NCBI GenBank assembly: GCA_038245295.1
Contig: JBBRSP010000032.1
Location: 7,410-71,409, forward strand
From: Candidatus Binatia bacterium
Lineage (GTDB): Bacteria; Desulfobacterota; Binatia; HRBIN30
Length of the DNA: 64,000 nucleotides
Reading direction: 5' to 3'
This document shows positions 2-17,563 of this stretch, in pieces. Within the stretch, counting starts at the first letter, position 1, and every line of letters starts with the position of its first letter. The translations under genes and the position numbers were made by a program. The notes under the pieces were generated by a model that made no database searches, had not been told where the DNA came from, and saw only the letters and a program-made list of their open reading frames with translations.

Positions 2-1189
2 CTGGATCGTCGAGTTGCGTCCGACATCGGCGACCGGATGAAACGACGGATTGCGCGGATCGATCTGCAGCCGAACGTTGCTTACCTGGTCGACACGGTA
101 GACGATCGGGTCGCGGTCCTCGGTGACACCGTGGCACTTGAGGCACACTTCGTACTCGAACGTAGCTTCCCGCAGGAAAGTACCGCCGATACTGATTCCC
201 GAGACGCCAGTCAGCGGGCCCGGCAGTTGGCCGGCCGGCGCCGTACTGCGCGCCTGGTGGGGGTTGTGGCAATCGACGCACTCCACGTGCGGTGGCATGA
301 AATTGGGGTTCTCGATTGGATCGTGGACATCGGTGAAACGATCGACGCGGTGGGCACTGAGCTTGTACGATTCGCGCCGCAAGTCTTTGGCGGCACTGCG
401 CCCGTCGTGGCAGTCGAGGCAGACCGCTTCCTCGGTTGGCGCCGTCAGCAGCCGTTTGGGGTGCGGCGCCGCGTGTGAGCGATGGCAACTGAAGCAGCCG
501 TTCTGTCCCACCGTAGCCTGGGCGGTTCCAGGCACGGCGCTCGCCTGCCCGGCACTCGCCGAGGATGTTGCGTGTGCCGACTCCTGCCAGTGCGGCAGCT
601 TGTGACAGGTGACGCAGAGCCCGGAGTACGCCGGGTCGGTGACCAGAAACTTGGGATGGCGGTCGAGGTGCGCGTCGTGGCAGCTGGTGCACTGCATCTG
701 CCGGGTGTCGTCGAGGCGCACGTTGCCGGTCAGGCTCGACGGGCTGACGAGCTCGCGCCGTCGCGTCGCCAGTGACTGGTCGTAGACGAAGGAGACCGGA
801 TGGTCGTCGGACAGATCGGTGCCGAGCGTCGAGTCGGCGTCACCCTTGATTCCGCCCTTGGCGATCACGCCGTCGTGACACGATAGGCACAAACGTGAGC
901 TGCCGGTCGGTTGCTGAACCTGCGCTTGCGTCGTGCTGCTCTCGTAGAGCTTGTAGATGACCGGTGCCAATTCCTGATTCCACAAGCCGCGCTGGGCGGC
1001 GGCGCTGTGGGGCGTGTGACAGAAGAAGCAGAGGTCGTCCCGACCAGACATCGGGACCGAGCGACCTGCGGCGGCGACTCCGCCGCGACGCGGACTGAGG
1101 TTGTGTGGTGTTTCGCGCAAGCCCGCCGAAGCGGTCAACGGGAGAACCGACACGACGATGACGACAAGCCGCCGGGCGACGCGTTTCAC
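2..1189 (-). CDS. Multiheme c-type cytochrome (at least 8 hemes), N-terminal OmcE-like tetraheme module; 3' end runs off the window
   Basis: Not in the ORF track; translated by hand. GTG start overlaps the upstream stop (GTGA). Signal peptide MKRVARRLVVIVVSVLPLTASA. Motifs CFFCH, CLSCH, CTSCH, CVTCH, CFSCH, CLDCH, CVDCH, CLKCH; also TPHNLS, LWNQ, LGTDLSDDHPV. Confidence 0.9.
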   Translation of the reverse strand, partial: MKRVARRLVVIVVSVLPLTASAGLRETPHNLSPRRGGVAAAGRSVPMSGRDDLCFFCHTPHSAAAQRGLWNQELAPVIYKLYESSTTQAQVQQPTGSSRLCLSCHDGVIAKGGIKGDADSTLGTDLSDDHPVSFVYDQSLATRRRELVSPSSLTGNVRLDDTRQMQCTSCHDAHLDRHPKFLVTDPAYSGLCVTCHKLPHWQESAHATSSASAGQASAVPGTAQATVGQNGCFSCHRSHAAPHPKRLLTAPTEEAVCLDCHDGRSAAKDLRRESYKLSAHRVDRFTDVHDPIENPNFMPPHVECVDCHNPHQARSTAPAGQLPGPLTGVSGISIGGTFLREATFEYEVCLKCHGVTEDRDPIVYRVDQVSNVRLQIDPRNPSFHPVADVGRNSTIQ

Positions 1190-2226
1190 GATGCACCCCC
1201 AAGCGAGCGAAATATCTGGACGCGTTGATTGTAGGTGTCGACGACGTAGATGCGGTCGCCATCGACGGCCAGGCCCGACGGGAGCCAGAACTGACCGGGG
1301 TCGTGACCGCGGCCGCCGAATACCATGAGGTAGCGGCCGTCCCCGTCGAACAGCTGGACGGCATCGAAGAGAGCGTCGACAAGGTAGACGTGTCCGGCCG
1401 CATCCACGCCGATGCCCTTGGGCCGGGCGAGTTCACCGGAGCCATCACCCTGCTGACCGAAGACCCCGAGGCAGCGGCCATCGGGGTCGAAGCGCTGGAC
1501 GCGAAAGTTGAGCCCGTCGGTGACATAGAGAGTGCCGCCGGCATCGACGGCCATCCAGGTCGGAAAATTGAATTCCCCCGGAGCCGCGCCGCGTTCGCCA
1601 AAACGCAACTGCAGCGCGCCCTGCGGATCGAAGACCAGGACCTGATGCTTGCCGCTGTCACTCACGTACAACCGCGAACGCGTGGCGTCGGCGGCGAGAC
1701 CCGCCGGGCGCGCCCCTTTCTCCAGATCCCAGCCGCCGACGCACTCACCGTCCGCGTCGAAACTGTCGATGCGGCCGCGCGCCGCGTCGGCAACGAAGAG
1801 GCGCTGCCCGAGAAACGCCACGGCGACCGGCTCAGCGAATTTGCTCGCATCGCAGCTGGTAAGCGAGTGGGCTTTTTGCGCCGTCAGATCATAGAGCTGC
1901 ACACGCGCCGCACCCGGATCCGCCACCGCGATGCGTCGCGCGTCTACGGCGACTCCGGTTGGACGCACGATCTCAGGATCGTCGGCACCACCAACAAGGG
2001 TGGCGAGCCGCGACCACAGGGACGGTTTGATGCCGAGATCGGCCGCGCCACCGAACGCGGAGACCCACTCGACGCGCGCCTGGTCGGGCGGAGAAGGCCA
2101 CACGAGCCGCACCGCCTCGACGCCCGGGCGGCCGGCGTCCCCCCAGTGACAGGATGCCACTAGGCTGGCGAGCAAGGGCACGAGGATCAGGAGGCGCTGC
2201 CGCCAGAGTCGACGTTCGGTACCCAT
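1186..2226 (-). CDS. NHL-repeat beta-propeller lipoprotein
   Basis: Lipobox LVASC, WPSPPDQAR motif, repeated GxxxGxFxxPxGxAVD...YVxD blades. Start placed at MGTERR. Confidence 0.88.
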   Translation of the reverse strand: MGTERRLWRQRLLILVPLLASLVASCHWGDAGRPGVEAVRLVWPSPPDQARVEWVSAFGGAADLGIKPSLWSRLATLVGGADDPEIVRPTGVAVDARRIAVADPGAARVQLYDLTAQKAHSLTSCDASKFAEPVAVAFLGQRLFVADAARGRIDSFDADGECVGGWDLEKGARPAGLAADATRSRLYVSDSGKHQVLVFDPQGALQLRFGERGAAPGEFNFPTWMAVDAGGTLYVTDGLNFRVQRFDPDGRCLGVFGQQGDGSGELARPKGIGVDAAGHVYLVDALFDAVQLFDGDGRYLMVFGGRGHDPGQFWLPSGLAVDGDRIYVVDTYNQRVQIFRSLGGAS

Positions 2227-2234
2227 ACGAGTTC

Positions 2235-4283
2235 TCAGAAGAACCGCCGTACCATGCGTAGTTCGGCGCGCATATCGTTTAGCCGCCCGCGATAGTCGGT
2301 CCAGGTGAAGCTCGGCGCAACCTCGAAGTTGCGATACGTCCAGTGCAGCCGCACGCCGCAGTCGGCGATCTCGTCGCTGGCGACCGACGAATCGTCGAAG
2401 GCGCGGTAGCCGGCGAAAGAGGATACCGATACGCCGAGCGGCGTGAACCAATCGACCGAGGCGCGTGCCAGATACGACCGGGAGTGGCGCTGTTGCCCCG
2501 GGTAGTCGACGAAGTACTCGTCACCACTCAGCTGAGCGCTGACGTCCTGCACCGGCTGGTACACCAGCAATTGCCCAAAGCGCAGGGCATTGGAGTCGAC
2601 GATCGTCGATCGCACGAGCTCGTAGGCGGCGCTCGACTGCACGCGCACCGTGCTCCACTGCTGGCGCAATTCCAATTTGAAGCGATCGAGATTCTGGTCG
2701 ATCAGAAAGTTCGAACTCGAGGAACCGGAAAGACGCGTTTGGTCGCTGAGGATGTGCTCGTACGATGTCGCGCCCCACGGGAACTCGACGCCGGTCCTGA
2801 CATCGGCCGAGGTGGTCGAGAAGTGAATGCTCGGATCGAGGTTGCTCGTGTAGCTGACCTCGAGTGGGTCGCCGGGTCGGATCACCGGACTCGTGGGCAG
2901 AATGATGATGCGCGTCAGGCTGCCTTCCTGACTGAGCACGTAGTCGACGTTCAGCGTCGTCGGTAGGCGCGAGCCGCCGCGCACGTCGACCATGACGATG
3001 GTGTCGTTCTGCACAAACGGATTGTTCAGCGTGAATCCGGCGCCCACACCAAACACCGCCGGTGCGGTGTGCGGCTCGTCGACAACGTCGAGCTGCGACG
3101 AGGTGAAGTTGTTCTGGTCGATCTGATAGCCGCCGGAGCAGGCGGCGAAGAATTGCGCCCCCCAGGGGATCGAGCGCCGGTAATCCAAACCAGTCTGGCC
3201 GCCGTAAACCATTCGGTCTCCGGTCTGGAAGTCTTGACGCATGGCGCGAACGTTCGCCGTACTGATCAACGTGCGGTAGAGGCGGTGCAGCAGTCCGGCC
3301 GTCGCCACGTTGGTTGTGGTGACACCGCTGGTCGAGTCGCTCTGCGAGAAGCTGTAGCGGTAGTCGGTGTTGAAATCGGCGCTGTGGTCGAGGCGCATGG
3401 CCTCGTCGAGCGAGATGAAGCTTCCGGGCGACGTGCCGGTGCGTTTGAAGTAATAGAAGGCGGAATCGAGCCTGCGGTTGAGGGTGGGCCCGAAATCGAA
3501 GCTGTCCAGCGCGCGCACCGTGTGACGGTCGAAGATGTCGGTCGGATTGAGCGGGTCATCGACGTTGTTGAACTCGTAGCGCAGATCGAGGTCCGACGTT
3601 TCCCACCCCTTGTGTCCCTGGTAGCGCACCACGTTGCGCGTCTCGTCGCGTCGAAACGGGCTGCCGAAGACCGCAGAGTCCTCTTTGACCAGCTCCTGGT
3701 GCACGTCAACCAGGGAGCTGAAATTGAGCAGTCCATACTCCTTCAGGAGGCTATTCTCGCGCAGCTCGAAAACGCCGCCGTGGGTTGCGAACGTACTGTC
3801 GGACCGACCACCGAATCCCTGCGACAAGATGCTCTGATTGCGGTTGGCGAAAAAGTTCAGGAGGTACGGACGATCGGCGAAGAGGATTCCGTCGATCGCG
3901 TAGTCGTAGAGATCACCGTTGCCATAACGCAGTGGCTCGCTGGTGACGTTGATCGCTTCCTCTTGCGACAGCCCGAAGGAGCCGCCGAAATTGAAGGTCA
4001 GGACGCGCGGATCAAGCAAGTACGCTCCAACGTTGCGCAAGCCAATCTTCTCCTGGAAGAAAATCGTCTCGTAGATGTTGTCCGAGCGTTTGTCGTCCTG
4101 TTTTTGCCAGTTGGTGAGGAAAGAGGCCTCGCCCTGCCAACGACCGAGCGACCACGCGGCCTGGGCTCGCGCCGTGTGGGTCAGAGCCACCAGCGCGAGG
4201 CCGACCAGCGCCACGGTGCACAACCCGCTCGTCCAGCTTACCGTGACGGGGAAGCCGCTGGTCCGTTGGACCGCTGAGATCAC
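2235..4283 (-). CDS. Outer-membrane beta-barrel protein (porin/secretion channel of the cytochrome cluster)
   Basis: Signal peptide ending ARA-QA, alternating aromatic/polar beta-strands throughout, C-terminal ...ELRMVRRFF beta-signal. GTGA-coupled to the upstream cytochrome. Confidence 0.75.
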   Translation of the reverse strand: MISAVQRTSGFPVTVSWTSGLCTVALVGLALVALTHTARAQAAWSLGRWQGEASFLTNWQKQDDKRSDNIYETIFFQEKIGLRNVGAYLLDPRVLTFNFGGSFGLSQEEAINVTSEPLRYGNGDLYDYAIDGILFADRPYLLNFFANRNQSILSQGFGGRSDSTFATHGGVFELRENSLLKEYGLLNFSSLVDVHQELVKEDSAVFGSPFRRDETRNVVRYQGHKGWETSDLDLRYEFNNVDDPLNPTDIFDRHTVRALDSFDFGPTLNRRLDSAFYYFKRTGTSPGSFISLDEAMRLDHSADFNTDYRYSFSQSDSTSGVTTTNVATAGLLHRLYRTLISTANVRAMRQDFQTGDRMVYGGQTGLDYRRSIPWGAQFFAACSGGYQIDQNNFTSSQLDVVDEPHTAPAVFGVGAGFTLNNPFVQNDTIVMVDVRGGSRLPTTLNVDYVLSQEGSLTRIIILPTSPVIRPGDPLEVSYTSNLDPSIHFSTTSADVRTGVEFPWGATSYEHILSDQTRLSGSSSSNFLIDQNLDRFKLELRQQWSTVRVQSSAAYELVRSTIVDSNALRFGQLLVYQPVQDVSAQLSGDEYFVDYPGQQRHSRSYLARASVDWFTPLGVSVSSFAGYRAFDDSSVASDEIADCGVRLHWTYRNFEVAPSFTWTDYRGRLNDMRAELRMVRRFF

Positions 4284-5530
4284 GGAGCATCCTTGATCCC
4301 GCTGTGACAGCGCTCGCACTGGCCGATCAGCTCGGTTGCCACGTCACCATGACAGGTCGCGCAATACTTGCCGCCGGCGAGATCAGGCATGCCGAGTCTG
4401 CTGGCGCTGGTAGCCGCATCATAGAGGTTGGTGTGACAGTTGGCGCACTCGAGATAGCGGTGTGTCTTGTGAGAAAAGCTGGTGGCGCCTCCGGATGCGG
4501 CGATCGGGCCGACCGGCACGTCAAGGTCGAGTGTGCTCTCGTGGTGCCGCGCTTGCTCGAAGCTGGGGTGGCACGGCCGGCAGGTGGTGGTGATGCCAAA
4601 GGCGACCGATCCGTGGCACGAGCCGCAGTAGCGTCGCGAGTGCAGGTCGATCGCTTTAACTCCTTCCAGCTTGCTGGCGGTGGGGAACAATCGTGGATGG
4701 CAGTTTTGACAGGACAGCCATTTGGTGTGGCTGGCGTGTGCAAAGATGGCTTTGAACGTAGGCTGCCCCGAGGACTCCATCACGACGTCGAGATCGAGCT
4801 GTGGCTGTGGCTCGGCGTTTGCCATGCGTCCCGGCCGCGGCGAAATCAGATTGTCGTTCAGGGCGCGGTTCCAATCGACGCGCCCGGTCGGATCGCGCGG
4901 AATGTTTTGCAGGTGGCACAGGGTGCAACCGCTCTTGGTGTCGAACGCCACCGGTCCGTGGCAAGTCGCGCAGTAGCGGTTGGTGTGCACGTCCGGCGCC
5001 GGCAGCACGTCGCCGCTTTTCATCTCAAAGATGCTGTCATGGCAGTTCGCGCAGCTCAGCCATTGCCCGTGCTTCGCATGCGAGAAGGTCACCTTGAACG
5101 CCGGATTGGCGGGGGGAACGAGATCGATATCGAGCTCGATGACGTCCTGCTGCTTGGCGTCCGGCTCGCGCCCAGGCCGTGGGGCAATCACCTTCTCTTC
5201 TGCGGCCCGCGTCCAATCGGGATTTCCGACCGCGTCCTTGGGAAGCTTACGCACCACGTCGTCGAAGGTGGCGAACGCGTTGGGCCCACGTGCCTCGGCA
5301 CCAAGCTGCACGTCATCCTGCGGTGGTACCGTCGGGGTTGGCGTGGCGGACGGCGGATGGCGCGGGCTGCGCGCCACCTGAGGCGGGGGCGTCTCGTCTG
5401 ACGGAATATCCGCGAACAAGAACGCGAGAACGCGCTGACGGTCCTCCGCGCCGCATCCGACAACCCCTGCCACGAAGGCCAGAGCGAGCAGCAGCAGAAC
5501 GACCGGCCTTGCCTGGGCCACCGACGTCAC
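4280..5530 (-). CDS. Nonaheme lipoprotein cytochrome c with three c7-type triheme domains
   Basis: Lipobox VVGC, Pro-rich linker, 9 CxxCH, three FxHxxH...CxxCH...CxxCHG..AF..CxxCH repeats. Confidence 0.9.
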   Translation of the reverse strand: MTSVAQARPVVLLLLALAFVAGVVGCGAEDRQRVLAFLFADIPSDETPPPQVARSPRHPPSATPTPTVPPQDDVQLGAEARGPNAFATFDDVVRKLPKDAVGNPDWTRAAEEKVIAPRPGREPDAKQQDVIELDIDLVPPANPAFKVTFSHAKHGQWLSCANCHDSIFEMKSGDVLPAPDVHTNRYCATCHGPVAFDTKSGCTLCHLQNIPRDPTGRVDWNRALNDNLISPRPGRMANAEPQPQLDLDVVMESSGQPTFKAIFAHASHTKWLSCQNCHPRLFPTASKLEGVKAIDLHSRRYCGSCHGSVAFGITTTCRPCHPSFEQARHHESTLDLDVPVGPIAASGGATSFSHKTHRYLECANCHTNLYDAATSASRLGMPDLAGGKYCATCHGDVATELIGQCERCHSGIKDAP

Positions 5531-5856
5531 GGCCCGATGTGGCAACGCTGGCACATGTCGGTGCCAAACGCGGCCTTGCCATTGTGGCAGGCTCCGCACG
5601 ATTGCCCCTTCGCCATCGCCGCCATGGTCGGCGCTTCGCCTCGCTTCATGGCGAAGAGATCGTCGTGGCAGGCGTAACATTTGTATTGGATGCGATGCAC
5701 CCAGTGCGGGAAGTAGGCGATGGCGATCTCACCGGCGGGGCGTTGGCGCGGATAGACGATGTCACCCAGCGTCCCGGCGCGCGCCGGCAAAGCGCCAGTG
5801 ACCAGAAGCCCCAGCATCAGGCCGAGGAACATGCGTGCGAGATGGTGGCGGGCCAC
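5527..5856 (-). CDS. c7-type triheme periplasmic cytochrome c
   Basis: Signal peptide, FPHWVH, CYACH, CGACH, CQRCH. Confidence 0.9.
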   Translation of the reverse strand: MARHHLARMFLGLMLGLLVTGALPARAGTLGDIVYPRQRPAGEIAIAYFPHWVHRIQYKCYACHDDLFAMKRGEAPTMAAMAKGQSCGACHNGKAAFGTDMCQRCHIGP

Positions 5857-7767: not shown

Positions 7768-7780
7768 AGCGTCTCGCAAA

Positions 7781-7796
7781 TGCAATTCCCGTGCTC
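7781..7796 (-). promoter_or_regulatory. Imperfect sigma54 -24/-12 promoter
   Basis: GAGCACGGGAATTGCA against consensus TGGCACNNNNNTTGCW; one conserved G is missing. Confidence 0.4.
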
Positions 7797-7936: not shown

Positions 7937-10597
7937 TCAGCGCGCATAGTTGATTCTGTAGGATTCCGTTCCGTGGCAGGTTGGCGTGCAGGTACCGCCG
8001 GTCGTCGTTTCCGTATAGCTGATGATACCTGGCGTTCTTCCGGTGGCGATGAGGTGCGGCTGGGTCGCCACGCCGTGCGAGTCGTGGCAGGCGTAACAAG
8101 GGTATTGATGATCGCCGAGATGTTTCGTGTGGCCTTCGTCCGTCGCCGGTAGATTGAAGCGACTGTAACTCTTCTCGGTGATGGTCGCTCCCTCGTTGGC
8201 GTAGGTGTTGTAACGATGACAGGCGAAGCATTCTTCGGTGGACGCCATGACGCGCCGTGCGCTGGACGCAATTGCCGGCTGCTTGAGCAGGTAGCGATTC
8301 TGCGACCCGTGCGGGCCGCGCACCGTCGGGTCATCGCTGCTGTGGCAGTCGCCGCAGTACATCTGCGCCGAGCCGGTCCAGCCATTGATGAAGGAGAGGA
8401 CGTTGACGTTGGTGTTCTTCCCGACAGCCTCAACCGGATGGTACGAGCGGTTGTTGCTGTTGAAGACGACGGCGAGATTCGACTGACCGGCCGGCTGCGT
8501 CGTCCAGGAGGAGTGGCACTTGAAGCACATCTGGTACTCGGCGACGGGCGCTGTCGAATCGCTCTTGTTGCGAAACGTGTATGCCGGGGTCGTTCCTGCC
8601 GCACCGTTGGTGACGGCGACACGTGATACGCCGCGAAGGTGATTGGAGAGGGCCGGCGCCGCAGGGGCTGCCGAGTCGGCGCGCGCCGCATGGGAGTTGT
8701 GACAATCCTCACACTCGGCGTGACGGTTGGCGTTTCCAAATGCCGCCGAAGTGCCAGCCTCGGTGTTGCTGTGGCGGCCGCTGTAGTCGTCGGTCGGATG
8801 TCGGTAGGTCTTGGTATCCTGCAGCAGGATGTTCTTTGCCGCCGGGCCTCCGTCGTGGCAGGCGTAGCAAAGCTTCTCTTCGCGGTTGGCCAATAGGTTC
8901 GGATAGTCCTGCGTCGGCGTGCTGCCATCGGGCCAACCGTGGGTCATGTGACAATTCGTGCAAGACCCACGCTTCGTTGTGTCGATGACACGCGGCAAAC
9001 GCGTGCCGAACGACGGCCCCGGCCACAACGCGCCGGTCGTTGGATTCAAGTGCGCCGCCGGGGAGACCGTGTCGGCGAGGCTGTGGCAGTCAGTGCAGAG
9101 GGCGTTGAGATTCGACAGGCGCGCCAATGTCCCATCCGTGGCTCCGCCGTTGTTATGGAGCTGATGACACGACATGCACTGCACTTTGTGGGTCGTCTTG
9201 TCCAAGGGAATGGTCGACGGCGTCTTGTAGGCACCGGCCGGCAACACGACACCCACCGGGTGCGAGCCGAGAGCCGAGCCGTTGACATTGCGGGCACTGT
9301 GACAGTCGAGGCACGTTTGGTTGGTGTCGTCGTCCAGACGCTGACAATGGCGGCCGTTGCCGCCGGGGCCGGGCGTGCCACTCGGGCCGGGGGTCGGATA
9401 GGCCGGAGCTGTCGGATCGAACGGTTGGGCCATCTGGCTGTGCTCGTTGTGGCACGACGAACACGTAACCTTGCCGCTCGCCAGGCGCGCCGCCAGGGCC
9501 AGCGACGTTGGCTGATTGATGTCGCTGTTGGCATAGACGGTCCACTGATCGTTCAGCTTGAACGCCGGTGGTGGCGTGGCGTTCGCGAACGTTATGTTGA
9601 TGCCCTCGTCGAGGCCGACATTGCTGCCGGTCGTGATGCCCGTGGTTGCCGGTGCGGCGACGAGGTACTCGATCTGGACATCATCGACGTAGACAAAGTC
9701 GGTCGCTCCCGCGGTGCCGCTCCCGAGAAAGCGAATGTACGTGGTGGTTGCGATGAAAGCGCTGAGGTCGAAGGCTTGCGCTACCACGGCATTGTCGCAG
9801 GCATTGAGATTGTATGTAGCGAGCGTTGTCCATGTTGCACCGTCGGTGCTGGCCTGCAGCGCCACATTCGCGGTGCTGGTGTTCGGACACGTCGCCAGTT
9901 GACGTCGGTAGCTGAAGCTCAGTAGCGCGGAAGTGGCGCCGGTTGATGTGGACGGTCGTTGGATGGCCCTGGTGTTGATCGTGCCGCCGCCAATGCGCAA
10001 GCAATTGCCGGCGACACAGGCGGCGTTGGCGACGACACGCAGGACGCCGGCGTTGACGCCGTCCGCCTCGACCACCTCCTGCCACGGTGTGGCTGTCCAC
10101 GTTCGAGTGCCGTTGCTCCCGTTGAAAGCGATGGTCGTAAACTCGTCGCGATAGGTCTGCGCCGCCGGCAACGAGGTCGTCCATCCAAACTTGGCAACGC
10201 CCACATCACCGGGCGTCGTGATCGTCAACGTGTAACTCTTCGAGTAACGCCCGCTGAAAGTACCTGCCGAGGTTACCTTGCCGGGCGACGTGTTGGCCGG
10301 GCTCGCCTTGACCCAACCCGAAGCGCCCGAGTCCCAGCGATGTGATGTGCCTCCCACTCCCGGCACCGCCTCGTCGGAATCGGCAAACGGCATGGTCGCG
10401 GCCAAACCGCCGCTACTGTGGCAGCTCATGCACAAGTTCGGATTGCCGGCGATCTTGGTGATCGCTCCGCCAGGGGCGTGGTGTGTGATGTGGCAACTGG
10501 CGCAGGTGATCGAGTTGCTGGAGTCATGCGGCGGGTCGAGGGCCAGCGCCGGCGTCGTGAACGCGAGGAGGACGAGCAGCAGCAATCGTGCGCTCAT
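7937..10597 (-). CDS. Large multiheme cytochrome c (13 CxxCH + 1 CxxxCH) with a heme-free beta-rich insertion
   Basis: Signal peptide; 2 hemes, then about 270 aa without heme motifs, then 11 CxxCH and a terminal CTPTCH. ATGA-coupled to the upstream gene. Confidence 0.9.
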   Translation of the reverse strand: MSARLLLLVLLAFTTPALALDPPHDSSNSITCASCHITHHAPGGAITKIAGNPNLCMSCHSSGGLAATMPFADSDEAVPGVGGTSHRWDSGASGWVKASPANTSPGKVTSAGTFSGRYSKSYTLTITTPGDVGVAKFGWTTSLPAAQTYRDEFTTIAFNGSNGTRTWTATPWQEVVEADGVNAGVLRVVANAACVAGNCLRIGGGTINTRAIQRPSTSTGATSALLSFSYRRQLATCPNTSTANVALQASTDGATWTTLATYNLNACDNAVVAQAFDLSAFIATTTYIRFLGSGTAGATDFVYVDDVQIEYLVAAPATTGITTGSNVGLDEGINITFANATPPPAFKLNDQWTVYANSDINQPTSLALAARLASGKVTCSSCHNEHSQMAQPFDPTAPAYPTPGPSGTPGPGGNGRHCQRLDDDTNQTCLDCHSARNVNGSALGSHPVGVVLPAGAYKTPSTIPLDKTTHKVQCMSCHQLHNNGGATDGTLARLSNLNALCTDCHSLADTVSPAAHLNPTTGALWPGPSFGTRLPRVIDTTKRGSCTNCHMTHGWPDGSTPTQDYPNLLANREEKLCYACHDGGPAAKNILLQDTKTYRHPTDDYSGRHSNTEAGTSAAFGNANRHAECEDCHNSHAARADSAAPAAPALSNHLRGVSRVAVTNGAAGTTPAYTFRNKSDSTAPVAEYQMCFKCHSSWTTQPAGQSNLAVVFNSNNRSYHPVEAVGKNTNVNVLSFINGWTGSAQMYCGDCHSSDDPTVRGPHGSQNRYLLKQPAIASSARRVMASTEECFACHRYNTYANEGATITEKSYSRFNLPATDEGHTKHLGDHQYPCYACHDSHGVATQPHLIATGRTPGIISYTETTTGGTCTPTCHGTESYRINYAR

Positions 10598-13572
10598 GGC
10601 GCCACCCACCCGACGAAGCCATGCAAATCCACGGTGGAGCTCGGGGCCAGGTCAATCGCCTCCCCGAGCAAGGCGCCGTGAATTGCCGCGGCGCGCCCGA
10701 CATGAATACGTCGGCTTGCCACGATCGAGCCGGTGACGGCGGACTCCCGCTTCAGTGCAGCCGACTGGTCCACGACGAACAGCACACGCTCGGGCGATAG
10801 GCCCTCGGTGTCGATGCGTGCTGCCGAACCGAGGATGAGACGGCCGTGTACGCGCACGATCACTGTATCGGTGCCGCCATCACCGGCCAAAGTCAGTCGA
10901 CTTCCGGGGCCGAGGATGAGGTTGTTCAGGTCGACGACGACTTGTCCGCCACCAAGACTACCGGCAGCCGGGAGGCGGCGGCTAGCGGCGCGCCCCAGCG
11001 TTAGCGTGCCAAGAATGAGATCCGGTCGCGGTGCGAGGCCGGCGAGCTGCGCCAGCCGACGTGTCGCCAATGTCCGCGCCGCGACACACTCGGAGAGCGC
11101 CACGCTGTTGCCGGTTGTATCAACGCGTCCACTGACGCTGGTGGCCTCGATCCCGCTGACACTACCGCCGCCGGTGCTGGCATCGCCGCTGGTCGAACTG
11201 CCATGGCGAAAGGCGACGGCACGGCCGCTGTCGGCCCACGCTGTCAGGTTGCCGTCGACGCGCGCGAAGAGACCGAGCTTCAACTCCTCGACACAGATCT
11301 CGCCGAGGACGATCGTATCGCTGCCGAGTTTGGTCGTGCGACGCACGTGTGTAGGCAGGGGCCAGCGCAGCAGGGCGTAGTTCGCGGTGACGAAGCGGCC
11401 GCGACAGGAACCGGCTCCGTTACAGGTATCACCCACGGTCGCGGCATCCAGGTCATCGCAAGGCTTTGTGGAGAATGGGTGTCCACAAGTGCCCGCCGAG
11501 TCGCAAATGTCGTCCGTGCAGTCGTTGCCATCGTTGCAGTCCCGTAAGGCGCCCCGGCACACACCGCCGGCGCAGTTGTCACCGAGCGTGCAAGCATTGC
11601 CGTCGTCGCACGCAGCCGAGTTGTTGCCGCGGGCGCAGCCGCTAGCCGGATTGCAGCTGTCATCGGTGCAGTCGTTGGCGTCATTGCAATCACGCGCCGC
11701 GCCGCGGCAGGTGCCGTCGCCGCAGGTGTCACCCACGGTGCAGGCATTGCCGTCGTCGCACGCAGCCGAGTTGTTGCCGTGGGCGCAGCCGCTCGTCGGA
11801 TTGCAGCCGTCATCGGTGCAGTCGTTGCTGTCATTGCAGTCGCGCGGCGCGCCGCCACAAATGCCGCTGCCGCAGGTGTCACCCAGGGTGCAAGCGCTGC
11901 CGTCGTCGCAGGGCGAGATGTTGTCGGCGTGGAGGCAGCCACTGGCGGGGGCGCAGCTGTCGTCGGTGCAGGTATTGTTGTCGTTGCAGTCGAGCGCCGC
12001 GCCGGTGCAGACTCCGCCGCCGCAGGTATCACCCGAGGTGCAAGCGTTGGCATCGTCACAGGCTGCCGTGTTTGGGCTGAAGACACAGCCGTTCGGCGCA
12101 TCACACGAATCGTCGGTGCAGACATTGCCGTCGTCGCAATGGAGCGCCCGTCCGACACAGACTCCGGCGCTGCAAGTATCTTCGATAGTGCAGGCGTCGC
12201 CATCTTCGCAGCCACCGCCGTCCGCCTTGGCCCGAACCGTGCAGCCGCTGGGGACAAGGCATACCGCCTCGCTACACTGCGGGTCGGCGTCGCCGAGAGG
12301 GCAGAGGGTGCCCGGGCCACAGATCGTCACCTGCAGCGCCGTCGAGCCCTCGAAGTGCATGGCGCCGATGGAACCGGTGAGCTGGACGGTCGCGGCACCT
12401 TGCGCCGGCAGTGTGGTGAGCAACTGGGCTGTATCAAATTCGACGCGCAGGTCGGCCACACCGTTGTTGTCATGATCGCCGCTGGTGACGGTGGCGGAAG
12501 CGTGGATGCCATTGGCGGTGATAGTCGATGGGTCGATCTGGTCCGGTGAGTATCCCGGCACTTCGATGTAGGCCGCGACTACCGGCGGCGGCGTCGCACG
12601 TTCGATGGGATCCGGAGCGATCTGGGCCACAGCGGGTGCGACGCTTTCGGGATCGGTGAAGGTGCCGAGACTGAAGACTTCGAGGCGAGCGTTATTGGCG
12701 GCGGCGATGAAGAGGCGATTAGAGGAATCAATCGCCAGACTCACGGGGATCCTCAACTGGCCCGGGGCATCGCCGAAGTCGCCGAGATAACTTACGAAGT
12801 CGCCGTTACGATCGAGGACCTCGACGCGGCCTTCGACGGAGTCCGCCACGTAGACGCGCCCCTGGGCGTCGAGAGCGATTCCTTGCGGCATGTTGAACTT
12901 GCCGGCGCTGTTTCCCTGGGCGCCGAAGCAGGACAGGAATGTGCCGTCGGCGGCGAAGGTCTCGACGCGATAGTTGAGTTGGTCGACAACGAGGACCTGC
13001 CGTGTCGCCGCATCTACAGCGACGGCGACGGGGACGTTGAACTGGCCATCGCCGCTGCCTTGTCCTCCGAACGCGAACAGGGGAGCACCACCGGCCGCGT
13101 AGACTTTGACGCTGTGGGCGGCGCTGTCGACGATGTACAGATTACCGGTAACGGCCTCGATCGCGATGTCGTTCGGCAGCCCGAGCTCGCCGGCGCCGCG
13201 GCCGCATTGAAAGAGCTGCTGCCAGGCGGCGTCGAACGCCGTGACACTGCCCGTGGCGGCATCGCCGACGTAGATTGTGTCATTGCCGGCGACGGCAACA
13301 CTTGTTGGGCGAGCAACGGGCTTGGTCCGCGACAAGACCCGGCCGTTTGCCGCCCGCACGACGATCTCGTTGAGCGCCGAATCGACGATGTAAAGGTTGC
13401 CCGACGGAGTCGCGGCGACACGACTCGGCACGCCAAAAGGGGCTCGATAGGCGCGCAGGTATGACGCCGGTGGTGCCGGCAATGCTGAGGTGCCGCCACC
13501 TCCACACAACCCATGCGCCGTCGAGGAGAGTAGCAGCGCGGGAAGAACGAGAAGTCGTATTGGGAGTGACAT
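10594..13572 (-). CDS. Secreted protein: NHL propeller + Cys-rich CxDGNxCT repeats + C-terminal beta-helix-like domain
   Basis: Signal peptide, NHL blades (about aa 45-300), GDHDNNGVADL motif, many CDDGNACT/CNDxNxCTDDxC repeats (Dictyostelium-type), beta-solenoid-like C-terminus. Confidence 0.8.
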   Translation of the reverse strand: MSLPIRLLVLPALLLSSTAHGLCGGGGTSALPAPPASYLRAYRAPFGVPSRVAATPSGNLYIVDSALNEIVVRAANGRVLSRTKPVARPTSVAVAGNDTIYVGDAATGSVTAFDAAWQQLFQCGRGAGELGLPNDIAIEAVTGNLYIVDSAAHSVKVYAAGGAPLFAFGGQGSGDGQFNVPVAVAVDAATRQVLVVDQLNYRVETFAADGTFLSCFGAQGNSAGKFNMPQGIALDAQGRVYVADSVEGRVEVLDRNGDFVSYLGDFGDAPGQLRIPVSLAIDSSNRLFIAAANNARLEVFSLGTFTDPESVAPAVAQIAPDPIERATPPPVVAAYIEVPGYSPDQIDPSTITANGIHASATVTSGDHDNNGVADLRVEFDTAQLLTTLPAQGAATVQLTGSIGAMHFEGSTALQVTICGPGTLCPLGDADPQCSEAVCLVPSGCTVRAKADGGGCEDGDACTIEDTCSAGVCVGRALHCDDGNVCTDDSCDAPNGCVFSPNTAACDDANACTSGDTCGGGVCTGAALDCNDNNTCTDDSCAPASGCLHADNISPCDDGSACTLGDTCGSGICGGAPRDCNDSNDCTDDGCNPTSGCAHGNNSAACDDGNACTVGDTCGDGTCRGAARDCNDANDCTDDSCNPASGCARGNNSAACDDGNACTLGDNCAGGVCRGALRDCNDGNDCTDDICDSAGTCGHPFSTKPCDDLDAATVGDTCNGAGSCRGRFVTANYALLRWPLPTHVRRTTKLGSDTIVLGEICVEELKLGLFARVDGNLTAWADSGRAVAFRHGSSTSGDASTGGGSVSGIEATSVSGRVDTTGNSVALSECVAARTLATRRLAQLAGLAPRPDLILGTLTLGRAASRRLPAAGSLGGGQVVVDLNNLILGPGSRLTLAGDGGTDTVIVRVHGRLILGSAARIDTEGLSPERVLFVVDQSAALKRESAVTGSIVASRRIHVGRAAAIHGALLGEAIDLAPSSTVDLHGFVGWVAP
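11430..12230 (-). repeat. Intragenic ~126-bp (42-aa) Cys-rich tandem repeats
   Basis: Near-identical units such as gcattgccgtcgtcgcacgcagccgagttgttgccg at about 11594 and 11744. Confidence 0.75.
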
Positions 13573-13586: not shown

Positions 13587-14969
13587 TCAGTGGGCGACCT
13601 GTTTGGAGCGGAAGGTGGCGGTGTCATGGCACGTTGCGCATTGTGTTCCCTGCTTGGCGCAGCTGGCCGTGGTGTTGCTGTGGCACGAGACACATTGGCG
13701 ACCGACCTCGCTGTAGGAGCGCGAGCGGTGGCACTGGCTACAGATCAGGCGCGTGTGAGCGCCGGTGAGAGGGAAAGGGCTGGCGTCGTGATCGAACAGC
13801 ACCTGGCGGCTCCAGCCCCGTTCATCGTGACAGCTCTCACATCGGGTTCCTTGTTGATGATTGTGCACGTCGTCATCGCGGTGGCACGAGTAACAGGTGG
13901 TCGACTGCCGCTCGGCGCGTGGCTCGGCGCGGTGGCAATTCGTGCACGGTGTCTCCTTGTGGCGGCCACGCAGCGCGAAATGTGTGTGGCGATCGTGGTC
14001 GAAGGTCGGTCGGCGCCAGTCGATGGGTGTGTGACACGACTCGCAGGTGTTGCCGAAATGCCCCTGATGCCTGTCGTCGCGGGCGTGGCAGCTGACGCAG
14101 GTGGCAGAGGTGTGGTCCGCCGCCGTGCCGGGTTTGTGGCAGCTGACACAGGCGGTTGCCGCGTGCCGACCGATCAAGGGGAAGGATGTCTTGCGCGCGT
14201 GGTCGAAGATGGCGCCGGTCCAACCGCGCGTCGTGTGGCACGCCAGGCAGTTGCTGCCGAAGGTTCCCTGGTGGCGGTCGTTCTTAGAATGACAGGCAAC
14301 GCATTCTGTGGGCGTCGGCTTGAAGCGCCGACTCGTATGGCAGCTCTCGCAGCGCAGCGTCTGATGTCGATCCCGCAAGGGGAAGCGAGTTGCGCTGTGG
14401 TCGAACTGTGCCGGCTTCCAGCCGCTCTCGTCGTGGCAACTCGTGCAGGCCATACCGAGTGTGCCGTCGTGCGGATCCTTTGTCTGGTTGTGGCAGTCGC
14501 TACACGCCGAGGGGGCGTCGCGAAAGCGGGTGTCGGCGGGATGGCAACCTTCACAGTCGAGCTTGGTGTGACCTCCGACGAGCGGCATGTCGGTGAGGCG
14601 ATGATCAAAGGTGCGGCGTTCGAGATGGATCAGGGTCGCGTCGCGGCCCTTGTGTTCAGCGTGGCAGGATTTGCATTGCTGCGCCTTGACTGTCGGCTCG
14701 TGCCCGTGGAAGCCGCGGCTGGAATCGAGATCGCCGGCGACGTCCGTATGGCACGCCAGGCAGAGACGGTCCTGCGACGCCTTTTCGAAAGGCTCATGGC
14801 ATTTGCCGCACGCCTTCTCCGTCGCCGCATGCTTCTCTGTGACTTGTCCAGGCATAACTAGTGATTCAACCCATGTGGCTCGCGCCGGCCCAGGGACCCA
14901 GATCATCAACACAGCGGCCATCACGATCACGCACGCTCTGGATCGGGTCGCCCACAGTCCCCACCGCAT
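13587..14969 (-). CDS. 18-heme periplasmic cytochrome c
   Basis: Signal peptide; 18 CxxCH counted, in repeated FDH...FPLxGxH..CxxCH units. Confidence 0.92.
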   Translation of the reverse strand: MRWGLWATRSRACVIVMAAVLMIWVPGPARATWVESLVMPGQVTEKHAATEKACGKCHEPFEKASQDRLCLACHTDVAGDLDSSRGFHGHEPTVKAQQCKSCHAEHKGRDATLIHLERRTFDHRLTDMPLVGGHTKLDCEGCHPADTRFRDAPSACSDCHNQTKDPHDGTLGMACTSCHDESGWKPAQFDHSATRFPLRDRHQTLRCESCHTSRRFKPTPTECVACHSKNDRHQGTFGSNCLACHTTRGWTGAIFDHARKTSFPLIGRHAATACVSCHKPGTAADHTSATCVSCHARDDRHQGHFGNTCESCHTPIDWRRPTFDHDRHTHFALRGRHKETPCTNCHRAEPRAERQSTTCYSCHRDDDVHNHQQGTRCESCHDERGWSRQVLFDHDASPFPLTGAHTRLICSQCHRSRSYSEVGRQCVSCHSNTTASCAKQGTQCATCHDTATFRSKQVAH

Positions 14970-14972: not shown

Positions 14973-15923
14973 TCAATACATGTTCACCGCGATGACGTGC
15001 AGGACTCCTGCAAGCACCAACATAATGAACAGCGGAATGTGCAGCGCGTGCCAGAGCGAGAACAGTCGCTCGAAGGCGCCGAACTGCAGATCTTTGACAA
15101 GGGCGTTCATGTAGTCGCGGATGACCTCGGCGGTTTCCTCCTCGTTCAGGCGAGTACCGCAGCCTTCGGGTTGAGTGCCCCGGGTGGCCGCCAGCAGATC
15201 ACGATGCAGGTCGCGTACAATGCGACGCTGCACCCAGGCGGCATAAAACGGCAGGACCAGGATCCGAAATAGACGACTGACGAGACCCGTGCGTTGGGCT
15301 CCGGCACGACGTGCGAACCGTGCCAGGCGCTGTGCGGCGTCGGATGTCGGGGGTAGCCGTTCCTCCAAGGTGTGGGCGGACGAGTCGAGCATCGCATCGA
15401 GGTCTTTGATGGTGGCGCGTGCGCCGTAGAGGCCGTGGCTGATGCGTGTGTAGATGTAGCGGCCGACGACGCCGCTGGCCGACACGATCAGCATCGAAAA
15501 CAATGCGACATTACTGTTGGGCGCCCCCAGGTGGAAGCCACAGTGGAATAGGATCAGCACGGGGCCGATGACCCCGAGCAGCATGTGCGTGCGGAACCAG
15601 TGGCTCAGGGAACCCCAGGAGCGCATGAAGCGTAGCGACTTGCGGGCCGGGTACAGGGCCAGAATAAGCATGGCTGAGGCGCCGGCGATGCCAAGTCCGT
15701 AACCGAGCCCATGTTTTGGTGTGATCCCGAGATGATCCCGGGAACTCCAGCCGAGAGTCACGGTGATCGCGACGACGCCGGTAAACAGGATGGCGGAAAG
15801 GCTCGGGTTGTGTGCCTTGCGGTGGACCCGCCGCGGTCGCGTCGCCGATTGTGAATCGTCATCACGGGCACGCCCGGTAAGATGGATCGAGAAGGGGCGA
15901 GCAACACTCATCGTCGACTCCAT
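14973..15923 (-). CDS. Inner-membrane protein, cytochrome b/ferric-reductase-like
   Basis: About 5 hydrophobic helices with His in WFRTHMLLG, ILFHCGF, LWHALHIP and VLHVIAV. Confidence 0.65.
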   Translation of the reverse strand: MESTMSVARPFSIHLTGRARDDDSQSATRPRRVHRKAHNPSLSAILFTGVVAITVTLGWSSRDHLGITPKHGLGYGLGIAGASAMLILALYPARKSLRFMRSWGSLSHWFRTHMLLGVIGPVLILFHCGFHLGAPNSNVALFSMLIVSASGVVGRYIYTRISHGLYGARATIKDLDAMLDSSAHTLEERLPPTSDAAQRLARFARRAGAQRTGLVSRLFRILVLPFYAAWVQRRIVRDLHRDLLAATRGTQPEGCGTRLNEEETAEVIRDYMNALVKDLQFGAFERLFSLWHALHIPLFIMLVLAGVLHVIAVNMY

Positions 15924-16161: not shown

Positions 16162-16177
16162 CGGCATTGCACTTGCA
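16162..16177 (+). promoter_or_regulatory. sigma54 promoter for the oxidoreductase
   Basis: CGGCATTGCACTTGCA, GG-N10-GC spacing, about 43 bp upstream of the probable start. Confidence 0.6.
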
Positions 16178-16219
16178 TCGTCGGCGGTATGTGGATGGCC
16201 ATGGCAGGATGAAGTTGGG

Positions 16220-17563
16220 GTGAGCAGTCAGTTCGAAGCAGCGGTGCGTGCTTTGTGGAGCGAAGAGTTCATTCGCTTCCCAATTTACGCGATGACGATG
16301 AGCCTGATCTGGGCTGCGTATTGGACCCGTCGCCTGAGGCAGCAGCGGCGCACGGTGCGCATGCTGGAGACGGCGGTCGCGGCTGGTCTGAGTGATCCGC
16401 CATCCCTGCACCCCGTCATCAATGAGGCGCACTGCATCGGTTGCCGGTCGTGCGTTACCGCTTGTCCGGAGGGTGATGTGCTCGGCGTGATCGATGGTAA
16501 GGCACGTCTGGTCAATCCAAGTCACTGTATCGGTCACGGCGCCTGCAAGCGCGCTTGCCCGATGAACGCCATCGACCTTGTCTTCGGCACGGAGAGGCGT
16601 GGCGTCGACATCCCGTTTGTCAGCAGCGAGTTCGAGACCAATGTTCCCGGGGTGTTCATCGCCGGCGAGCTCGGCGGAATGGGGCTGATCCGCAATGCCG
16701 CCGAGCAGGGCCAGCAGGCAATCACCGCGATTGCCGAGCGTCGTGACAAAAGCGGTGACGCCGAGCTCGACGTGTTGATCGTCGGAGCGGGACCGGCCGG
16801 AATCGCCGCGTCATTGGCCGCCGCCGAGAAGCGGTTGCGTTATGTGACGATCGAGCAGGAAGTGCGCGGCGGAACCGTGGCGCACTATCCGCGCGGCAAG
16901 ATCGTCATGACGGAGCCGGTGAATTTGCCACTGGTCGGCAAGACCCGCCTGCGTGAGACAACCAAGGAAGCCTTGCTCGCCTTCTGGGAAGCGATCGAGA
17001 AGGAACACGGGCTGAGCATTCATTACGCCGAGCGCCTCGAATCGATCATCGCGGAGCGCGACGGGTTTCTTGTGCGTACCTCGAGTGCCGTCTACCGTGC
17101 GCGCGCCGTGTTGCTGGCGATCGGCCGCCGTGGTTCACCGCGCAAGCTTGATGTTCCAGGTGAGGAGGTTGCGAAGGTCGTCTATCGCCTGATCGATGCG
17201 GCGCAGTATGACGGCAAACACGTACTGGTGGTCGGTGGTGGCGACAGCGCGATCGAGGCGGCTGTCAGCCTGTCCGAGCGACCGGGGACACAGGTAACCC
17301 TGTCCTACCGCGGCGCGGCGTTCTCGCGCACCCGCGAGAAAAACCGCCAACTGCTTGCGGCGGCCGCCGCCAAACATCGGCTCAGCGTCGTCCTCGAATC
17401 GTCGGTTCGAGAAATTCTGGCCGCCGATGTGATTCTGGAACACCACGGTGCACAGCGCCTTATCCCCAACGACGCGGTGATCGTCTGTGCCGGCGGCATC
17501 CTGCCGACGCAGCTGCTCAAAGACATTGGGGTGCGCGTCGAAACCAAATATGGAACCGCATGA
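16220..17563 (+). CDS. Membrane-anchored 2[4Fe-4S] ferredoxin + FAD/NAD(P)H oxidoreductase (thioredoxin-reductase-like)
   Basis: N-terminal TM; CIGCRSCVTACP and CIGHGACKRACP; GAGPAG, LLAIG, GGGDSA. Start uncertain (16220 GTG or about 16291 ATG). Confidence 0.85.
   Translation: MSSQFEAAVRALWSEEFIRFPIYAMTMSLIWAAYWTRRLRQQRRTVRMLETAVAAGLSDPPSLHPVINEAHCIGCRSCVTACPEGDVLGVIDGKARLVNPSHCIGHGACKRACPMNAIDLVFGTERRGVDIPFVSSEFETNVPGVFIAGELGGMGLIRNAAEQGQQAITAIAERRDKSGDAELDVLIVGAGPAGIAASLAAAEKRLRYVTIEQEVRGGTVAHYPRGKIVMTEPVNLPLVGKTRLRETTKEALLAFWEAIEKEHGLSIHYAERLESIIAERDGFLVRTSSAVYRARAVLLAIGRRGSPRKLDVPGEEVAKVVYRLIDAAQYDGKHVLVVGGGDSAIEAAVSLSERPGTQVTLSYRGAAFSRTREKNRQLLAAAAAKHRLSVVLESSVREILAADVILEHHGAQRLIPNDAVIVCAGGILPTQLLKDIGVRVETKYGTA

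Follow-up and report, generated by a model that had tools for sequence, protein, structure and literature searches.

Could a single gene cluster of an uncultured bacterium encode a complete path for electrons from the cytoplasm to the exterior of the cell, and by which proteins would electrons enter and leave it? This question is raised by a 64,000-nt stretch of DNA, hereafter the window, that corresponds to positions 7410-71409 of contig C32 in G000, a Binatia metagenome-assembled genome (MAG) of 6.6 Mb that is 96.6% complete and 3.35% contaminated. One end of the window carries 11 minus-strand open reading frames (ORFs), running from position 15923 down to the window edge, and one divergent plus-strand ORF (16022/16244-17563). 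A preliminary description made from the sequence had interpreted these genes as an electron conduit built around an OmcE-like nanowire cytochrome. We assign a probability of roughly 0.6 to the reading that the locus encodes one trans-envelope multihaem conduit, composed of an outer module of the OmcE/Uet type and an inner module of the PCC3 type. The inner end of the cluster consists of a flavoprotein, an inner-membrane protein and an 18-haem cytochrome, which are referred to below as the trio.

The ORF map and the domain scans agree with the gene content originally proposed, eleven co-oriented genes plus one divergent gene (Table 1), and the composition of the DNA is unbroken at the locus, with a G+C content of 61-66% across the window. 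Six of the cluster ORFs contain a total of 55 in-frame CXXCH motifs between positions 145 and 14810, against a background in the same six-frame scan of two motifs on the plus strand within the cluster region and six in the other 46 kb from 17,564. One CX3CH motif closes the 14-haem gene and brings the number of c-haem motifs inside the window to 56, in line with the minimum first counted, and the whole cluster holds 60 (18 + 14 + 4 + 3 + 9 + 12) when the gene truncated at the window edge is followed to its end on the contig. That gene had been described as encoding eight or more haems, and at least eight are indeed in the window, but it runs 488 nt past the window to C32:6922 and encodes a 559-aa protein with 11 CXXCH motifs and a C-terminal CX3CH, which corrects the figure to 12 haems. 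Counted downward from the membrane-protein gene, the junctions between ORF coordinates are 3, 14, -16/-4, 127, ~48-90, 81, -4, an ambiguous one, 8 and -4 nt. The ambiguous junction is that of the nonahaem and barrel genes, which overlap by 40 nt with a barrel start at 4319 and are otherwise ~32-53 nt apart.

The gene on which a filament would depend encodes a tetrahaem protein that, judged by alignment, is a homologue of OmcE. A PDB sequence search identified full-length matches to the OmcE filament subunit of G. sulfurreducens (7TFS_A, E 3.7e-21) and to the filament subunit of D. soudanensis (9YUQ_N, E 1e-20), with modest scores of 79 and 78 bits, and the four CXXCH motifs as well as H28, H54, H150 and H192 are conserved without exception in an alignment of 18 homologues of 34-70% identity. 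The OmcE-like label first given to this gene is thereby borne out. Two relatives carry tandem copies of the tetrahaem gene (G036:C39:8518-9920 and G007:C1:11717-13053), the second copy in G007 being split over two frames.

The 12-haem cytochrome is related to the same family. Residues 7-197 match OmcE 7TFS in the PDB search (E 2.7e-18), and the N-terminal domain is colinear with the tetrahaem family through TPHNLS, CFFCHTPH, LWN, CLSCHDG, DDHP, CTSCHDAH and CVTCH, so aligned that all four CXXCH motifs and all four distal His residues coincide. By this alignment the protein is an OmcE-like tetrahaem module (residues 1-200) fused to an eight-haem extension, and it exhibits 40% identity to a homologue in a locus from a Geobacteraceae MAG (L012). 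The 14-haem cytochrome is 27-30% identical to the 12-haem protein over the C-terminal half and had no match in the PDB sequence search; it is a paralogue of the 12-haem protein and tentatively contains the OmcE-like module as well, interrupted after haem 2 by ~285 aa of non-haem sequence. This insert (window 9500-10355 on the minus strand, residues ~85-370) gave only a weak F5/8-type-C match (E 0.0086), and no usable match in an Atlas search. Orthologues of the 14-haem gene in three relatives (G036, G023 and G015) align as two blocks with ~0.9 kb of extra sequence between them. The remaining two cytochromes of the outer module are of the c7 type. The nonahaem protein matches Pfam Cytochrome_C7 in three stretches (E 1.9e-27) and the nanowire_3heme family TIGR04257 (140.5 bits, cut-off 40). 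Both c7 proteins had been called lipoproteins; the nonahaem protein does possess a clear lipobox, VVGC, while the trihaem protein, as read from its sequence, has an ordinary signal peptide.

Clusters with these components have been described before. The minimal omcE cluster of Desulfuromonadia comprises two multihaem cytochromes, two propeller lipoproteins, OmcE and a large barrel, and homologous clusters are reported in five phyla (Petersen et al. 2026, PMC13712944); OmcE-like cytochromes are also reported in porin clusters of Acidobacteriota and Verrucomicrobiota (2026 preprint). The uetA-J cluster of Tenderiales encodes a tetrahaem (UetA), a barrel with 28 predicted strands (UetC), three c7 trihaems (UetD/E/G), two NHL proteins (UetH/I) and a cytochrome with 11 CXXCH motifs (UetJ), together with the PPIase UetB and the cupredoxin UetF (bioRxiv 10.1101/2022.05.06.490989). 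The occurrence of such a cluster outside Geobacter, initially offered as the novel aspect, is therefore not new, given the five phyla of the omcE clusters (PMC13712944) and the same parts in uetA-J (bioRxiv 10.1101/2022.05.06.490989); the Binatia host does lie outside the five phyla listed (PMC13712944).

Compared with the omcE clusters of Geobacter and Desulfuromonas, the window shares an OmcE-homologous tetrahaem, two NHL (lipo)proteins, a large barrel of the same family and the multihaem cytochrome whose Geobacteraceae homologue was mentioned above. The gene order in that Geobacteraceae locus is OmcE-like, NHL, barrel, NHL, 12-haem homologue, as against NHL, OmcE-like, c7 units, barrel, NHL, 12-haem in the window. 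Additional in the window are the c7 trihaem and nonahaem proteins, the 14-haem cytochrome with its insert and the 992-aa NHL/Cys-rich protein, both read as specific to the lineage, the inner-membrane module and the flavoprotein, and no glycosylation gene block was found by Pfam beside the cluster on the side scanned (17.6-21.6 kb). Relative to the uet cluster of Candidatus Tenderia electrophaga, to which the window was likened by description only, all of the UetA, C, D/E/G, H/I and J part types are present, and the c7 domains come as 3 + 9 where those of uet come as 3 x 3.

The wider distribution was followed in two sets of loci, an OmcE/Uet-type set made up of the best 80 of at least 485 related stretches from many phyla (one genome per GTDB species) and a PCC3-type set of 80 metagenome loci that a search with the membrane protein retrieved. 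NHL matches are present in 78 of the 80 OmcE/Uet-type loci; a long UetJ-like homologue occurs in 71 and a separate small OmcE-like gene in 52, with both in 44.

The outer module also includes the barrel gene. Pfam and NCBIfam scans returned no family match for its product or for its 97 detectable homologues, and the ORF is 663-694 aa depending on the start, with a signal-peptide-like stretch after a possible start near 4247. The AlphaFold2 (AF2) model built from a 44-sequence alignment (pLDDT 89.7, pTM 0.76) consists of 30 long antiparallel strands and a small insert, and the best PDB fold matches provided by Foldseek are generic large barrels, with a top TM-score of 0.45 to MtrB (6r2q_B). A hidden Markov model (HMM) of the barrel family matches 41 of the 80 OmcE/Uet-type loci and none of the 80 PCC3-type loci, and it finds the barrel of the Geobacteraceae locus (E 4.9e-22) exactly between the two NHL genes. 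The preliminary description had made its reading depend, among other things, on a barrel fold; the model predicts a barrel of ~30 strands, and by the HMM it is homologous to those of OmcE-type clusters. With regard to the NHL proteins, the lipoprotein at 1186-2226 is 41-44% identical to the product of the NHL gene preceding the UetJ-like gene in the Geobacteraceae locus and in a Rhodocyclales locus (L014), and the protein at 6679-7809 has orthologues of 65-73% identity at the same position in five relatives. The 992-aa protein begins with an NHL propeller, continues with Cys-rich repeats and ends with an ice-binding-like (beta-helix) region, for which the Ice_binding match is just under the cut-off. 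In the C-terminal two thirds (window 10594-12200, minus strand), the Cys-rich repeats that precede the ice-binding-like region number about eight and are Dicty_CTDC-like (CxDxNxCTxDxC), and paralogous repeat proteins are encoded on contigs C57 and C30.

It is quite possible, if not the reading we prefer, that these outer proteins form a porin-cytochrome complex without any nanowire, with the tetrahaem as a monomeric surface or periplasmic protein and the 12-haem cytochrome as the sole wire through the barrel. The identity of the tetrahaem to the solved OmcE filament subunits is modest, as the bit scores given above indicate; OmcE-like tetrahaems are widespread and not all of them need be filament subunits (PMC13712944), and the authors of the Uet study treat polymerisation only as a possibility (bioRxiv 10.1101/2022.05.06.490989). 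Filament formation is favoured by the invariance of all four distal His residues, including that of the N-terminal TKHDLS arm, and by the context of the gene, since a large barrel and a propeller lipoprotein are what characterises likely nanowire formers (PMC13712944). Of the features by which omcE clusters are recognised in that study (PMC13712944), a tetrahaem with extra His residues, a large barrel, a propeller lipoprotein and two further multihaem cytochromes are found in the window.

The inner module begins with the 312-aa membrane protein, which has no match in Pfam and NCBIfam scans. Its family is large, with 2475 representative homologues at E <= 1e-3 and 479 at E <= 1e-30, and the homologue search returned only entries named 'hypothetical protein' and nothing informative. 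Invariant in 56 aligned members are H113, H127, H292, H295, H309, S150, G151, G154 and W291, and W109 is nearly so; these residues compose the motifs W109-x3-H113-x13-H127 and W291-x3-H295-x13-H309 on two helices and S150-G151-x-x-G154 on a third. The AF2 model (pLDDT 86.4) exhibits five membrane helices and a conserved helical domain of ~120 residues between transmembrane (TM) helices TM4 and TM5, and Foldseek found no PDB match for it at E <= 0.001. The N-terminus and the TM2-TM3 loop, as read from the sequence, are rich in Arg/Lys, a charge distribution that would place the N-terminus and the TM4-TM5 helical domain in the cytoplasm and, as a consequence, one His pair near each membrane face.

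These are the features of the PCC3 inner-membrane protein (IMP), which has ~300 aa, five TM helices, SGxxG on TM4 and W-x3-H-x13-H on TM3 and TM5 (He et al. 2017, PMC5566968), is taken to bind two b haems and is accompanied by a periplasmic multihaem cytochrome with a median of 21 haems (PMC5566968). The 18-haem gene of the window starts 3 nt downstream of the membrane-protein gene, and its product had no match in a PDB sequence search. From the shared signature and the adjacent cytochrome of ~18-21 haems, the two proteins are best described as counterparts of the PCC3 inner-membrane protein and periplasmic cytochrome, in a comparison with Sideroxydans, Leptothrix and other Proteobacteria that is one of descriptions, not of type sequences. 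The preliminary description had named a cytochrome b-like protein and an 18-haem cytochrome; both genes are present, but they represent already described PCC3 parts and not a novelty (PMC5566968). What distinguishes the window from PCC3 is the outer half, where the PCC3 porin and its extracellular cytochrome with tens of haems are replaced by the OmcE/Uet-type module. Sixty of the PCC3-type loci extend 1 kb or more past the membrane-protein gene, and in 56 of these the gene that immediately follows on the same strand is an 18-21-haem homologue (in 72 when all 80 loci are counted). In the eight long loci examined, this homologue carries 18-21 CXXCH motifs, and the next genes encode cytochromes with 13-43 CXXCH motifs and a non-haem protein of 640-890 aa, which is the PCC3 layout.

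Assignment of the membrane protein to the NOX/ferric-reductase domain (PF01794) was rejected, as there was no Pfam match and Foldseek gave none at E <= 0.001; the automatic Atlas cluster name, 'ferric reductase like', was regarded as a lead only. No fusion to a redox domain was observed in ten longer homologues scanned, whose N-termini have TPR, SPOR or no domain. Homologues P0287 and P0282 carry such N-terminal TPR or SPOR extensions of 350-400 aa.

The divergent gene encodes the flavoprotein, for which the most likely start is 16244, giving a predicted 439 aa; homologues are mostly 429-453 aa (38 homologues with ORFs listed). The protein has an N-terminal TM helix followed by RRLRQQRR, two Fe-S motifs and a thioredoxin-reductase-type FAD/NAD(P) domain, and no export signal. 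In 28 homologues, C64, C70 and C74 of the first Fe-S motif are present in all and C67 in 24, and the second motif, C-x2-H-x2-C-x3-C-P, retains C95, H98, C101 and C105 in all 28. The Rossmann motifs G181-x-G183-P-A-G186 (FAD) and G331-G-G-D-S-A336 (NAD(P)) are likewise invariant in the 28. The nearest solved relatives are YpdA/Bdr (7A7B, E 8.2e-23) and thioredoxin-reductase (TrxR)-type ferredoxin-NADP reductases (FNRs), with 5YGQ, 3AB1 and 3LZW as further PDB relatives, and our reading of the protein is a fusion of ferredoxin and FNR that is held at the cytoplasmic side of the membrane by its anchor. It also has a Y-R...F-x-R motif, which we take to resemble the NADPH-specific motif of thioredoxin reductases. 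Within the Fe-S region (residues 64-105, window 16430-16560 on the plus strand), the invariant His of the second motif may point to a cluster that is His-ligated or of the 3Fe type where electrons would probably leave the protein. Two other identities were rejected: that of a thioredoxin reductase proper, because the redox-active CxxC is lacking and the sole invariant Cys residues sit in the Fe-S motifs, and that of a YpdA equivalog, with 150 bits against a cut-off of 339.9.

The flavoprotein gene accompanies the membrane-protein gene well beyond the window. Of the 33 metagenome loci that reach 4.5 kb or further upstream of the gene for the membrane protein, 29 encode a homologue (430-530 bits), and the gene is divergent and upstream in 40 of the 45 loci possessing it, mostly 150-800 nt away. 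The literature on PCC3 provides no trace of such a partner within the texts covered. Neither 'FAD' nor 'ferredoxin' occurs in the main text of He et al. 2017 (PMC5566968; supplements outside the search), the passages on PCC3 in two Gallionellaceae papers do not mention the flavoprotein, the ES-1 neighbour genes Slit_0865, Slit_0866 and Slit_0871 were not named in the literature search (supplements likewise outside it), and a literature search for a pyridine nucleotide-disulfide oxidoreductase with multihaem cytochromes and a porin returned nothing pertinent. Around the flavoprotein gene of PCC3-type loci, a 640-690-aa protein with ankyrin and Sel1 repeats adjoins on the same strand in the three that were scanned of the eight long loci (L133:6360-8339, L182:6220-8145 and L104:4625-6682), and in a scan of two more loci (L127 and L137) the flavoprotein gene is separated from the membrane-protein gene by CcmH/CycH-like TPR genes. 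The window has neither the ankyrin and Sel1 protein nor the CcmH/CycH-like TPR genes.

What this pairing would mean can be considered in the light of two known arrangements. In two-component NOX-like systems (MsrQ/Fre, and the eukaryotic NOX/FRE proteins), a cytoplasmic NAD(P)H flavoenzyme reduces membrane haem b bound by His pairs 13 residues apart, which passes the electrons on to a periplasmic or external partner, and quinone is not obligatory. The window differs from these in that no sequence or fold similarity was detected, the membrane protein has five TM helices and not six, and the flavoprotein has its own anchor and two Fe-S motifs. The Hmc/Tmc complexes of sulfate reducers combine a periplasmic multihaem cytochrome c, a membrane cytochrome b and a cytoplasmic Fe-S protein in a path in which quinone is optional; the one similarity detected to these is a weak, sub-threshold HmcA score of the 18-haem protein (22 bits, cut-off 400), and the cytoplasmic partner in the window is a flavoprotein and not an HdrD-like CCG protein. 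The Methylobacter bioanode system was set aside as a comparison, being MtoAB-type and not relevant. Complex models of the flavoprotein and the membrane protein with two haem groups and two [4Fe-4S] clusters gave scores of 0.40, 0.44 and 0.48, with 0.28 for one control, and were counted neither way.

The principal alternative to a direct NAD(P)H entry, which we regard as unlikely, is that the conduit is coupled to quinones. The membrane protein would then be a quinol:cytochrome c oxidoreductase or a quinone reductase, and the flavoprotein would be an NDH-2-like quinone reductase or a separate neighbour. The flavin domain and NDH-2 fall within one superfamily, that of the pyridine-nucleotide-disulfide oxidoreductases, and the extracellular electron transfer (EET) locus of Listeria, with its dedicated NDH-2, is a precedent. 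The His-x13-His pairs have been likened to quinone-reactive cytochrome b (PMC5566968). In favour of protein-to-protein transfer, the two conserved Fe-S motifs suit it better than they suit quinone reduction, the conserved cytoplasmic helical domain of the membrane protein could be a docking platform, and the flavoprotein and membrane-protein genes form a tightly conserved divergent pair, typically 150-800 nt apart.

Whether inner and outer modules belong together was assessed from synteny in 41 genomes, among which G023 is of the same family and G036 of the same order as the window genome. A close tetrahaem orthologue (E <= 2e-80) is present in six of the 41, including the window genome. G036, G023 and G007 keep the complete set of twelve genes in synteny, and in G029 the blocks are rearranged while the cluster is contiguous and the trio still within it; close membrane-protein orthologues (E < 1e-90) are confined to these four and the window genome. 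Beyond this group, a Rhodocyclales locus (L014) has the genes for the membrane protein, the 18-haem cytochrome and the flavoprotein on one strand, 44-57 nt apart, adjoining an OmcE-type core, and a betaproteobacterial locus (L052) shows, of the trio, the genes for the membrane protein and the 18-haem cytochrome, situated where the locus is cut off. The synteny of the trio with the outer module, on which the preliminary description had made its reading depend, is therefore seen in four of the five relatives with the cluster and again in the Rhodocyclales locus. Related genomes are not independent samples, so this synteny is to be read as co-inheritance and not as statistics. A membrane-protein copy at 42% identity was also detected in a relative without the OmcE-type cluster (G027:C3:4234867-4235676) and could be part of a PCC3-type locus within the same order.

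Several observations weigh against the proposed joining of the two modules or against its presumed entry point and direction. No OmcE-type genes adjoin the trio in any of the 80 PCC3-type metagenome loci, and the coupling would thus be lineage-specific. In the fifth relative, G015, the outer module and the 18-haem gene are present, the flavoprotein and membrane protein are absent from the 30 kb fetched, and the membrane-protein matches elsewhere in the genome are distant (28% identity) and on other contigs; the outer module can accordingly exist without the trio, as quinone coupling would also allow. PPIase and cupredoxin domains, which form part of the uet cluster, are absent from the 12 window genes (Pfam). 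As the membrane protein has neither a Pfam family nor a solved structural relative, haem b binding is deduced from the motif. The PCC3 IMP has been proposed to exchange electrons with quinones (He et al. 2017, PMC5566968), and PCC3 and Uet were both proposed for electron uptake, the opposite direction. Finally, an outward route driven by NAD(P)H would dissipate membrane potential and conserve no energy by itself, and so it would suit redox balancing better than energy conservation.

Taking the evidence on both sides, we infer a sequence of steps for the conduit of joined OmcE/Uet-type and PCC3-type modules in which haem b binding, the contacts between proteins, filament formation, the direction of flow and independence from quinones are all provisional. 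Electrons from NAD(P)H would pass to FAD and then to the two Fe-S clusters of the flavoprotein on the cytoplasmic side, and from these to the inner-face and then the outer-face haem b of the membrane protein. The outer-face haem would deliver them to the 18-haem wire and the c7 units, which would carry them across the periplasm to the 12-haem cytochrome, threaded through the barrel or docked at it. The OmcE-like N-terminal domain of this cytochrome, with a stacking face and an N-terminal His arm, may seed or anchor the tetrahaem polymer outside the cell. In its strongest form, the proposal is that the trio is a hitherto unrecognised, quinone-independent NOX-like NAD(P)H:multihaem-cytochrome oxidoreductase that serves as entry point for PCC3-type conduits generally and for OmcE/Uet-type conduits in Binatia and some Rhodocyclales, and that the 12-haem protein is the base or anchor of the filament, its OmcE-like N-terminal domain nucleating the filament and its eight C-terminal haems wiring through the barrel; this combined claim is tentative, and we consider it doubtful as a whole.

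The direction of flow might also be reversed. As an uptake conduit, the system would pass electrons from extracellular donors (Fe(II) minerals, reduced humics or other cells) to the respiratory chain, a role put forward for Uet in cathode-oxidising Tenderiales, where the host is an autotroph (bioRxiv 10.1101/2022.05.06.490989), and for PCC3 in Gallionellaceae. Chains of multihaem cytochromes are reversible, uptake is the published proposal for both module types, and the likely source of the DNA is a sediment metagenome. Inward flow to NAD(P)+ through the transmembrane haem pair would, however, be uphill in redox terms and run against the membrane potential, and the conserved flavoprotein would be left unexplained; in addition, the homologous OmcE filaments of Geobacter and Desulfuromonas serve export (PMC13712944). 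We therefore consider uptake improbable. Still more remote, and very improbable in our judgement, is a periplasmic redox system that is no EET system and acts on a soluble substrate, in detoxification or in assimilatory metal reduction. NADPH-type flavoproteins would be typical of assimilatory or protective systems and not of respiratory ones, but the ~30-strand barrel of the OmcE/Uet-cluster family is conserved within the operon, the tetrahaem is homologous to OmcE, which is extracellular by experiment, and 60 haems would be a large investment for a soluble-substrate reductase.

In the rest of the genome, the trio is single-copy and 33 ORFs have at least three CXXCH motifs. A second, paralogous OmcE/Uet-type core is located on contig C19 (5032-17824) without the membrane protein, 18-haem cytochrome or flavoprotein; its ORFs encode an 8-haem, a tetrahaem-like, an NHL, a 5-haem, an NHL, a 10-haem and a 13-haem protein, and the 10-haem ORF contains an OmcE-like N-terminal domain and is 36% identical to the 12-haem protein of the window. 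Beyond the 12-haem gene, the contig encodes on the minus strand a 344-aa protein (C32:5849-6880) and a repeat protein with two LPTSLGFVS...DWSC-type units (C32:4726-5760), the latter presumably DUF11-like in appearance. These two genes and the DHDPS flank were rejected as members of the cluster, having no counterpart in the loci of the relatives. The host had been taken to use F420, and this fits a CofD (2-phospho-L-lactate transferase, F420 biosynthesis) at window 50314-51222 on the minus strand (C32:57723-58631), which scores 311 bits and above the NCBIfam cut-off, as well as 38 luciferase-like monooxygenase matches in the genome.

Table 1. Genes of the multihaem cluster, with coordinates in the window and the features on which each assignment is based
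Feature	Coordinates	Strand	Basis and remarks
12-haem cytochrome, UetJ-like	1..1189 (ORF listed 2-1189)	-	N-terminal 396 of 559 aa; 8 CXXCH in window
NHL beta-propeller lipoprotein, 346 aa	1186..2226 (ORF to 2451)	-	Pfam NHL E 1e-28; lipobox LVASC
Outer-membrane beta-barrel (predicted)	2235..4319	-	AF2 model; no Pfam match; C-terminus RRFF
Nonahaem lipoprotein, three c7-type trihaem domains	4280..5530	-	9 CXXCH; Cytochrome_C7
Trihaem c7 cytochrome, 109 aa, signal peptide	5527..5856	-	3 CXXCH; Pfam Cytochrome_C7 E 9.2e-16
OmcE-like tetrahaem, 216 aa	5938..6588 (ORF open to 6630)	-	4 CXXCH; PDB matches
NHL beta-propeller protein, 376 aa	6679..7809	-	Pfam NHL E 9.2e-29
14-haem cytochrome	7937..10609	-	13 CXXCH + CX3CH; paralogue of 12-haem protein
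992-aa NHL/Cys-rich protein	10594..13572	-	Pfam NHL 5.5e-21, Dicty_CTDC 7.6e-10, Ice_binding 2.5e-6
18-haem periplasmic cytochrome	13587..14969	-	18 CXXCH; 25.6 aa per haem
Inner-membrane protein, 312 aa, putative dihaem b carrier	14973..15911 (ORF open to 15923)	-	PCC3 'IMP' signature
Membrane-anchored flavoprotein, 439 aa	16244..17563 (ORF open from 16022)	+	Pfam Pyr_redox_3 1.7e-39, Fer4_10 1.4e-11

Taken singly, each part of the cluster is of a known kind by its sequence relationships, whether OmcE/Uet, PCC3 or TrxR-type FNR. As far as the searches reach, what is new is the combination of the modules, the conserved flavoprotein partner, the OmcE-like N-terminal domain of the UetJ-like cytochrome and the Binatia host. 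The conserved flavoprotein suggests a direct link to cytoplasmic NAD(P)H for conduits of the PCC3, Uet and OmcE types, and such an entry, if true, would follow a different logic from that of the quinol-oxidising ImcH, CbcL and CymA. No anchor or tip candidate is reported to be apparent in OmcE operons (PMC13712944); the OmcE-like module on the multihaem gene after the second NHL gene, found both in the window and in the Geobacteraceae locus, offers a candidate for the anchoring or initiation of the nanowire. The connection of the conduit to metabolism and the anchoring of the nanowire thus become testable with defined genes, and Binatia, an uncultured and widespread lineage of sediment and soil, becomes a candidate for extracellular electron exchange.

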